Source: a virus
Taxonomy: Duplodnaviria; Heunggongvirae; Uroviricota; Caudoviricetes
IMG/VR virus record: IMGVR_UViG_2529293015_000003
Strand: one strand, 5' to 3'
Length of the DNA stretch: 43,724 bases
Positions 17,808-18,617 of this stretch are shown one piece after another (position 1 is the stretch's first letter; each line of letters begins with the position of its first letter). Made by a program: the position numbers and the translations under genes. The notes under the pieces were generated by a model, which was given only the letters and a program-made list of their open reading frames with translations, was not told the origin of the DNA and did no database searches.

Positions 17808-18617
17808 ATGCAAGAAGAGAAACAACACTACCTCTACGTTCTGGTGCCAGAGAACGGAGATACTTTTAAAATCGGCATTTCATGTGGTCCATTGGCACGG
17901 TTTAAAGGGCTACAAGTGAGTCCCGATTTTGCGCTTTCACGGGTCTATCGTGGTACGCGTTTGGCAATGGTTAATCTTGAGCGGGCTTTACACGCAACCT
18001 TTTTCCCCTGGAATGCGCCGTGGGAGAAAAGCGTCGGTGGCGGGCATACTGAATGGTTTACACGAGAGTGTCTTGATAAGGTTTTGGCTCATATCGAATA
18101 TCTAAATGATATGTGGGGAGGGATTCTCGAGCGCATTAAGTCGAATGATTTACTTCAGCGTCCAGTAGATGCTGCTTGCTCTTTCGAAAAAGAGCTGGAT
18201 GTTACTTCTATCGTGACTTTCAAAGATGACGCAGGAATGAGGGACGTGGCTTATGTCTCCATATCTGGCTATGAACCGGACGCGATCCGCGCTCAATGTG
18301 AATTGCTGAAAGCAATGTTTATGCTTCGGACTAAATATCCCTGGGATACAGGGCGGGTGTGCTTCCCTATGGAAGAGTTAACCGCCACCATTGATTCCCT
18401 GCTTTACCACGATAATCCAGAGAAGTTTTTTAGCCTTTTAGCCGGTAATGGGCTTAACTGTGTGTCCGGGCTGGGGCGAAGTAGAATCCAACATGCCTCG
18501 CTCTTCGGTCCCTTCTTTTACGATCGACACGGGTACTTTGAGGCTGAACTTCCGGCGCTTACGCGTGCTATAGATACTATCGATTTCGAACGATTATTCG
18601 CTGCTCTTAGCAAATAA
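17808..18617 (+). CDS. T5orf172/GIY-YIG-like nuclease-domain protein with uncharacterised C-terminal domain
   Basis: N-terminus HYLYVLV...FKIGIS...R...GGHTEWF fits the T5orf172 (GIY-YIG-related) pattern; sits between the iterons and parA. Confidence 0.6.
   Translation: MQEEKQHYLYVLVPENGDTFKIGISCGPLARFKGLQVSPDFALSRVYRGTRLAMVNLERALHATFFPWNAPWEKSVGGGHTEWFTRECLDKVLAHIEYLNDMWGGILERIKSNDLLQRPVDAACSFEKELDVTSIVTFKDDAGMRDVAYVSISGYEPDAIRAQCELLKAMFMLRTKYPWDTGRVCFPMEELTATIDSLLYHDNPEKFFSLLAGNGLNCVSGLGRSRIQHASLFGPFFYDRHGYFEAELPALTRAIDTIDFERLFAALSK

Follow-up and report, generated by a model that had tools for sequence, protein, structure and literature searches.

The window, by which we mean the whole stretch analysed here (43,724 nt of Caudoviricetes DNA, IMG/VR record IMGVR_UViG_2529293015_000003), carries a plasmid replicon followed by a par module. 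The gene under study, hereafter X, lies between the last iterons of this replicon and parA. The features of the region are the following:

16330–16433, + strand: left part of the plasmid origin, alignable to P1 oriR, with a DnaA box (TTATCCACA, 16339–16347) and a GATC cluster
16449–16554, + strand: five incC-like origin iterons, core TTGACTATAYGCGA, mostly at a 21-bp spacing (repeat families D1–D3)
16631–17515, + strand: p0111-type repA, encoding 294 aa if started at the ATG and 306 aa if started at an upstream in-frame TTG (16595)
17516–17777, + strand: incA-like iterons, two direct (17516–17531, 17540–17555) and four inverted (17635–17653, 17697–17715, 17729–17747, 17759–17777) (repeat families D1, D4, D5)
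17808–18617, + strand: X, 269 aa from an ATG, with a T5orf172/GIY-YIG domain, a linker and a winged-helix-like C-domain
18625–18648, + strand: terminator-like hairpin and T run, 8 nt past the X stop (hairpin GCCCCTGAACGGGGC, then T6 at 18625–18639)
18684–18785, + strand: par promoter/operator region, where near-identity to P1 restarts, upstream of parA (18786–19982)

By its RepA, the replicon is of the p0111 type: the protein matches Pfam Rep3_C/Rep3_N and PHROG 775, is 42% identical to P1 RepA, and is encoded by a gene that recurs at 99% identity or more in 392 PLSDB plasmids, among them pO111_2, the name-giving carrier of the p0111 replicon. The window iterons are unrelated to those of P1, and the homology with P1 ends at the first of them. 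In megablast comparisons, the repA–X–parA stretch recurs at 98–99.9% identity in SJ46, RCS47, JL22 and other P1-like phages, whereas canonical P1 matches the window only from about position 18687 onward. A few further observations concern this region. The repA coding sequence contains a near-perfect iteron copy (TGTTGACTATAAGCGA, 17233–17248, 94% identical to the reference iteron), which is also kept in the repA gene of the diverged element L003 (L003 7610–7630) and might serve, inside the gene, for RepA binding or regulation. Upstream, upfA is split by a 1808-bp insertion (14235–16042) that carries an IS91-family transposase (ORF 14670–15857; Pfam Y2_Tnp and Zn_Tnp_IS91) and leaves an N-terminal ORF of 52 aa (14079–14237); P1 and RCS47 are uninterrupted at this point, the joints overlapping by 6 bp. 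Note that the MOB-suite typing available through PLSDB labels the P1-like plasmids with a p0111 replicon (L007–L012) as ‘IncHI1B’.

X is a real gene and not a chance ORF, since PHROG 2876 (‘unknown function’) covers it over its full length (E 1e-193) and since it occurs across plasmids, phages and E. coli genomes. The first-pass annotation, made from the letters alone, had described a 269-aa ORF with three T5orf172-type motifs followed by its own terminator; the ORF, the motifs (YLYVLV at residues 8–13, FKIGIS at 20–25 and GGHTEWF at 78–84) and a terminator-like hairpin are all in place. Residues 8–85 match Pfam T5orf172 (PF10544) with an E value of 7e-6 and 26.9 bits (gathering score 20), so that the nuclease motifs stand up to a comparison with profiles; MUG113 and Tox-URI2, two related models, do not reach threshold. 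For the C-terminal part, which had been noted as being without a known domain, searches indeed returned no sequence match over ~165 aa in Pfam (to E ≤ 10), NCBIfam, PADLOC or the PDB (profile search), hhalign against a RepA alignment gave nothing, and there is no sequence similarity to any RepA tested. The complete protein likewise had no match in NCBIfam, nor to any family at E ≤ 1 among the PADLOC-DB 2.0 defence models. In RefSeq, X is annotated as a ‘GIY-YIG nuclease family protein’; the literature searched held no functional or comparative analysis of it, nuclease assay or phenotype. The record of phage phi456 (OR339795) labels it ‘terminase small subunit’, a label unsupported by our profile and structure searches.

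An AF2 model of X (mean pLDDT 85, pTM 0.58) displays a nuclease domain (residues ~1–105), a linker predicted with lower confidence (~106–125, confidence being lower at ~110–130) and a C-domain (~126–269), suggesting that X consists of two domains, the mutual orientation of which is uncertain at this pTM. The predicted N-domain has the GIY-YIG α/β fold, its best structural match being SLX1, at a sequence identity of only 11–17%. No variation is seen at Y10, K21, G23, R31, E58, H62, E82, W83 and F84, be it among 24 relatives or among the four syntenic lineages described below. We take R31 and E82 to be the catalytic pair, the K21–R31 and R31–E82 spacings being like those of Y17–R27–E75 in I-TevI. 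Because R31 and E82 are spaced like the catalytic Arg and Glu of I-TevI, we expect X to have retained nuclease activity. The T5orf172/GIY-YIG assignment is thus upheld by the profile threshold, by the predicted fold and by the invariance of the candidate catalytic residues.

The C-domain is predicted to adopt a winged-helix-like fold, and its closest solved folds are the WH1 domains of Rep proteins. In Foldseek searches, Rep_3 proteins rank first (6h24, probability 0.98, E 8e-3), further matches being RctB (probability 0.91) and dozens of RepE54 chains; with a lower-confidence model of the C-domain alone, scores of 5.5, 5.0, 4.7 and 4.6 were obtained, together with 5.7 for a CRP-like regulator. 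In these models, the likeness to Rep WH1 is one of fold and falls short of a proof of homology. X is acidic in all four lineages (pI 5.4 for the whole protein and 5.1 for the C-domain), whereas the RepA proteins are basic (pI 9.3–9.5). Judged by its charge, X is no less suited to contacts with other proteins than to reading DNA directly.

Comparison with P1 defines the unit to which X belongs. The P1 annotation (NC_005856) places upfA upstream of oriR and runs through repA, nine incA iterons and a spacer of ~170 bp to Ppar/parA with no CDS in between, as the first-pass annotation had stated. On the left side of the window replicon, the identity with P1 falls progressively (~98–99%, 94%, 74%) within the final ~300 bp, which contain the DnaA box and the GATC cluster as well as the end of upfA, and is gone at the first iteron. 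Overall, window segment 16043–16433 is ~85% identical to P1 (L001 2621–3006) over the ~400 bp left of the iterons, compared to ~99% further left. The right edge is sharp: in blastn alignments the identity jumps to 95–100% at window position 18684 (4498 in the P1 locus), which is 67 nt past the X stop codon, just beyond the terminator. Since the breakpoints lie before the iterons and past the terminator, X reads as the 3′ end of a cassette and not as an insertion into the incA–parA interval. The proposal that X is an accessory insertion between the P1 iterons and parA must therefore be abandoned: the p0111 cassette as a whole has been swapped as a block, of which X is a fixed part. The homing and defence roles that the first-pass annotation had proposed both stay among the readings weighed below. 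By gene order, X is the 3′-terminal gene of a replicon cassette comprising part of the origin, iterons, repA, iterons, X and the terminator. The ~85% identity left of the iterons, and the same decay in a second pair of elements (see below), further indicate that the exchanged block takes in a diverged but homologous origin segment.

The P1 incA–parA spacer was searched for X remnants or a recognisable target, using p0111-type, L003 and IncY-type X proteins as well as DNA alignment, with chance-level results only; a likeness of this spacer to the region following X in L003 proved to lie within the shuffle range. We also discarded the idea that coincident breakpoints prove a nuclease-driven exchange: the conserved flanks are the only possible recombination sites, so the breakpoints coincide anyway.

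Searches of 5.8 billion clusters, 1.84 billion representatives, GTDB, IMG/VR and JGI metagenomes revealed only three diverged full-length relatives of X, all of them in P1-like elements and all located between incA-like iterons and parA: (i) L003 has a p0111-like RepA (84% identical to that of the window) and an X protein 44% identical to that of the window; (ii) L059, from Salmonella, has an IncY-type RepA (83% identical to P1 RepA) with P1-type iterons, and its X protein is 25–28% identical to the p0111-type ones; (iii) L060 represents a third RepA/iteron type (41–48% identical to the other types), its X protein being 38% identical to that of L059. Across the p0111, IncY and third types, the X homologues thus share 25–44% identity. 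The incA-like layout, with direct and inverted copies, is common to the three elements, each with its own iteron sequences, and in all lineages X starts 20–30 nt past the last inverted incA iteron, on the repA strand. L003 and L059 have flanks that are ~99% identical (parA 99.7%, parB 98%, gp23 99.5%) and differ in their cassettes; their breakpoints resemble those found for the window and P1, with the same decay of identity on the left.

The state of the incA–parA interval in related phage-plasmids, for which comparison had been advised, is therefore mixed. It is empty in P1 and in IncY plasmids with a P7-type par module, where parA follows incA directly; it is occupied by X in p0111 elements, L003, L059 and L060. 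Thus IncY-type cassettes exist both with X (L059) and without it (P1), although the replicon DNA of these two is only ~76% identical. Because diverged X genes occupy the same slot in two further replicon types, one of them IncY, we consider on comparative grounds that the X-bearing arrangement is old and widespread, and that P1 and the E. coli IncY elements are a lineage without X. Many IncY plasmids, e.g. L065 (NZ_LT985234, 4827–4943) and L066 (NZ_CP050069), are exact matches to P1 as far as the last incA iteron, beyond which they have another par module; the one switched into such plasmids encodes a ParA of 401 aa, as in L060. Since IncY plasmids change their par module at the last incA iteron, the end of incA is, by these alignments, a recurrent joint at which rep and par modules meet; X remains on the rep side.

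The distribution of X is that of its replicon. X is encoded in 401 PLSDB plasmids (all at 90% identity or more), and this RepA type in ~398 (at 80% or more); the cassette DNA is found in 404 PLSDB records, contiguous in 391 and split by record ends or IS elements in the others. X is also present in 12 phage records and in 412 of the 5426 complete E. coli genomes (7.6%), at 414 plasmid and 7 chromosomal places. All 45 GTDB and IMG/VR loci have repA(p0111)–X–parA with a fixed spacing, and a metagenome scan added 28 loci of the p0111 X lineage, counted by X itself. PLSDB and INPHARED contained only p0111-type X. In all of the ~450 elements examined, p0111 repA is adjoined by X or an X remnant, none being of the p0111 type without X, so that this group displays no empty-site polymorphism. 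Nor was homing-type mobility apart from the flanking genes seen, X being always with its cognate repA and iterons. Moreover, the GC content of X tracks that of its own repA in the four lineages (X/repA: 41.1/41.2, 44.3/45.0, 47.4/47.1 and 47.4/45.5).

How X is expressed may be read from its position. Scans of the window, L059 and L060 revealed no σ70-like promoter between repA and X, and no terminator-like site was found there in the window or L060; in L059, this interval has only a weak hairpin formed by inverted iterons, which we discounted as a terminator. Immediately after X, a terminator-like hairpin is present in the window and L060, and the scan found none in L059. As no promoter was seen downstream of repA, any X promoter must overlap the iterons. 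Given this and the short distance between the iterons and the X start codon, X is probably transcribed from, or controlled by, the RepA-regulated repA/iteron region; read-through from PrepA, initiation occluded by RepA, or both, might be at work.

This setting invites the view that X is a non-essential accessory of replication control, whose WH1-like domain would bind RepA (through a WH1–WH1 contact) or the iterons and whose SLX1-like domain would process replication intermediates (handcuffed pairs, dimers or stalled forks), or which would act as a regulator only. The location of X directly past the incA iterons, on the repA strand and with no promoter or terminator detected in between, is in keeping with it, as are the co-inheritance of X with its cognate repA and iterons, the structure-specific nuclease SLX1 as best match of the N-domain, the role of Rep WH1 domains, the nearest solved folds of the C-domain, in Rep dimerisation, and the opposite charges of X and RepA. 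We nevertheless regard this view as unlikely, because the P1 and P7-par IncY replicons function without X and because of the way X evolves.

Segregating sites were counted in 48 p0111-type alleles:

repA: 48 synonymous and 3 nonsynonymous sites, 4 protein alleles, ratio 0.02
parA: 72 synonymous and 1 nonsynonymous sites, 2 protein alleles, ratio ~0
X: 34 synonymous and 40 nonsynonymous sites, 27 protein alleles, ratio 0.34

At synonymous sites, the cassette is about as diverse as parA, and the 48 alleles thus bear no signature of a sweep in the cassette. The X proteins of the window and L003 share 44% identity (64% in the N-domain and 32% in the C-domain), as against 84% for RepA, 89% for ParA, 80% for gp23 and 67% for ParB. 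By these counts, X diverges far faster than its neighbours while its motif residues are kept across a very deep divergence. For a protein dedicated to replication control, the low identity of the C-domain where RepA is so similar and the iterons are the same is hard to square with a conserved partner interface, and the nonsynonymous/synonymous ratio of X contrasts with that of repA.

X is also frequently broken. Premature stops are present in 8 of the 48 alleles and correspond to three independent events, at codons 68, 112 and 228. The codon 112 stop, a TAG, is that of pO111_2 itself (L012, NC_013370, 2501–3310), where RefSeq consequently annotates two short CDSs, and is also found in L034, L035, L037, L038 and L040; the stops at codons 68 and 228 are those of L051 and L031, respectively. 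In L054 (5300–7060), an IS200/IS605-type element with a TnpB-like 392-aa ORF and a 144-aa ORF replaces X codons 101–175, while independent insertions of an IS3-family and an IS1-family element interrupt X in NZ_CP138414 (H210) and NZ_CP100998 (H289). Further copies are broken by frameshifts, ~80% of all copies being intact. The absence of X from P1 and the P7-par IncY plasmids, the nonsense alleles, the IS insertions and the frameshifts together indicate, at the level of the sequences compared, that X is dispensable for plasmid replication and partition. A core maintenance role (rep, inc or par) was rejected on account of these absences, stops and insertions and of the weak constraint on X compared to repA and parA; in particular, a homologue with a maintenance function is not a general attribute of P1-family replicons, since P1 and the P7-par IncY replicons lack X. 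The accessory view, too, has to accommodate the fact that pO111_2 and other lineages bear X nonsense alleles or IS insertions.

Such decay could mean that X is a relic, i.e. a formerly invasive homing endonuclease or cargo gene that was fixed through its linkage to repA and has no current function. The three independent stop events, the insertions and frameshifts, and a constraint that is relaxed relative to the neighbouring genes would all follow. Yet most copies are intact, a ratio of 0.34 still denotes purifying selection, and both the nuclease motif residues and the two-domain length are kept at 25% identity, so that we hold this to be quite improbable.

T5orf172/GIY-YIG domains are found in defence proteins, and X might accordingly be a nuclease directed against phages or foreign DNA, for instance of a type IV-like kind, its winged-helix domain reading modified or foreign DNA to the benefit of the lysogen. 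Rapid evolution and frequent loss, as observed for X, fit defence genes. More distant relatives of ~300 aa (L005/L006 6001–6894, L062 846–1766, L004 6001–6918) share only the N-terminal T5orf172 domain with X; they are located in chromosomal islands, where their neighbours are McrBC-like AAA_5 genes, a 713-aa PAPS-reductase-like gene or Fic. Sequence and gene context suggest a wider T5orf172 nuclease family with variable C-domains and defence-like neighbourhoods. Although these neighbourhoods speak for defence, they belong to relatives with 30–36% identity, confined to the N-domain, and we set aside any derivation of the function of X from them, as they are heterogeneous chromosomal islands and not replicons. 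PADLOC, moreover, has no match to X, and the defence cargo of P1-like elements normally varies at hot spots, whereas X is locked to one slot and, within each lineage, to one replicon type. All in all, a defence role seems doubtful to us.

The known system closest to X is Odn (Gp88) of vibriophage ICP1, in which a T5orf172 nuclease is joined to a DNA-binding domain derived from RepA and which cuts the origin iterons of PLE (PMC8263062). Both proteins combine a T5orf172-type GIY-YIG domain with a second domain, which in X is initiator-like in its predicted fold, and both are encoded by competing mobile elements and linked to the swapping of replicon modules. They differ in that (i) the DNA-binding domain of Odn is N-terminal and 42% identical to PLE RepA_N (PMC8263062), whereas the second domain of X is C-terminal and resembles Rep_3 WH1 at the fold level only; (ii) Odn belongs to a phage anti-satellite locus, whereas X lies inside a plasmid replicon cassette; and (iii) iteron cleavage is demonstrated for Odn, whereas X is known here from its sequence and predicted fold.

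X also resembles the homing endonucleases of phages (T4 Seg proteins and I-TevI, those of ICP1): it is small and intergenic, has its own terminator, lies at the edge of an exchanged block, joins a catalytic domain to a targeting domain through a linker, diverges rapidly and often degenerates. Its catalytic domain stands at the N-terminus, in the order of I-TevI. In contrast to these endonucleases, X is strictly co-inherited with one repA type, in which no empty site segregates. In ICP1, T5orf172 homing-endonuclease genes sit at the boundaries of exchanged modules (PMC10448857); they mostly have Zn-finger CapR/DUF723 DNA-binding domains (PMC10448857), which X is devoid of. As for the SLX1/URI-type nucleases, SLX1 acts in eukaryotes on branched DNA together with SLX4 and has a RING/PHD domain, and X has no such partner or domain.

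The reading that we favour, to which we give a probability of roughly 40%, is that of a conflict nuclease, linked to the cassette, I-TevI-like in layout and of either the homing or the Odn type. In its favour we count the nuclease domain, the linkage to the cassette, the rapid, conflict-like evolution of the protein, its dispensability and the precedents of Odn and the ICP1 homing endonucleases. X would be a two-domain DNA endonuclease with N-terminal GIY-YIG catalysis, a flexible linker and a C-terminal winged-helix targeting domain. P1-like phage-plasmids exchange the replicon cassette ending with X as a block, and X would cut the DNA of a rival P1-like element or replicon, either in the rep/inc region of the rival, as Odn cuts the PLE iterons, or near the incA–parA joint, in the manner of a free-standing homing endonuclease. 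Cutting would favour the cassette that encodes X by exclusion or gene conversion. Here, we infer the nuclease activity of X, its co-transcription with repA, its target and its competitive benefit. Several findings go against a conflict nuclease, namely the acidity of X and of its C-domain, which would be unusual for a sequence-specific DNA binder, the observation that X never moves apart from its repA, the p0111 group having no empty-site polymorphism, the lack of a sweep signature in the cassette and the lack of sequence similarity to RepA. In addition, ordinary homologous recombination in the conserved flanks would explain the block exchange with no need for a nuclease.

A bolder version, which strikes us as quite unlikely, treats X as an initiator-mimicking nuclease: the acidic WH1-like domain would dock on Rep or on Rep–iteron complexes, those of a rival replicon or, under particular conditions, those of the replicon to which X belongs, and deliver the GIY-YIG domain to the origin. 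If true, X would be a protein-guided, origin-directed weapon and a new, active layer of incompatibility or exclusion, driving cassette swapping.

Part of this was already known: X is annotated in RefSeq and has its PHROG 2876, and in JL22 the ‘unknown protein-encoding gene gp57’, which is X, was reported to have replaced repA(IncY) together with repA' (PMC9603915). The window carries the same replicon and the same gene as pO111_2, SJ46, RCS47 and JL22, and the published descriptions of p0111 contain no analysis of the domains of X, of how it evolves or of its conservation across replicon types. What appears to be new is that X belongs to the cassette, that its slot is conserved in three replicon types, that its second domain is Rep-WH1-like and that it evolves as described here.

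P1-like phage-plasmids are common and carry resistance genes, and the IncY and p0111 replicon types serve for typing, while their coexistence and swapping lack an explanation. As a conflict nuclease, X is a testable candidate for competition between replicons or for cassette drive, and would be a plasmid counterpart of Odn. Even if X should prove to be no more than a passenger in decay, it is part of the replicon cassette and no hot-spot insertion.
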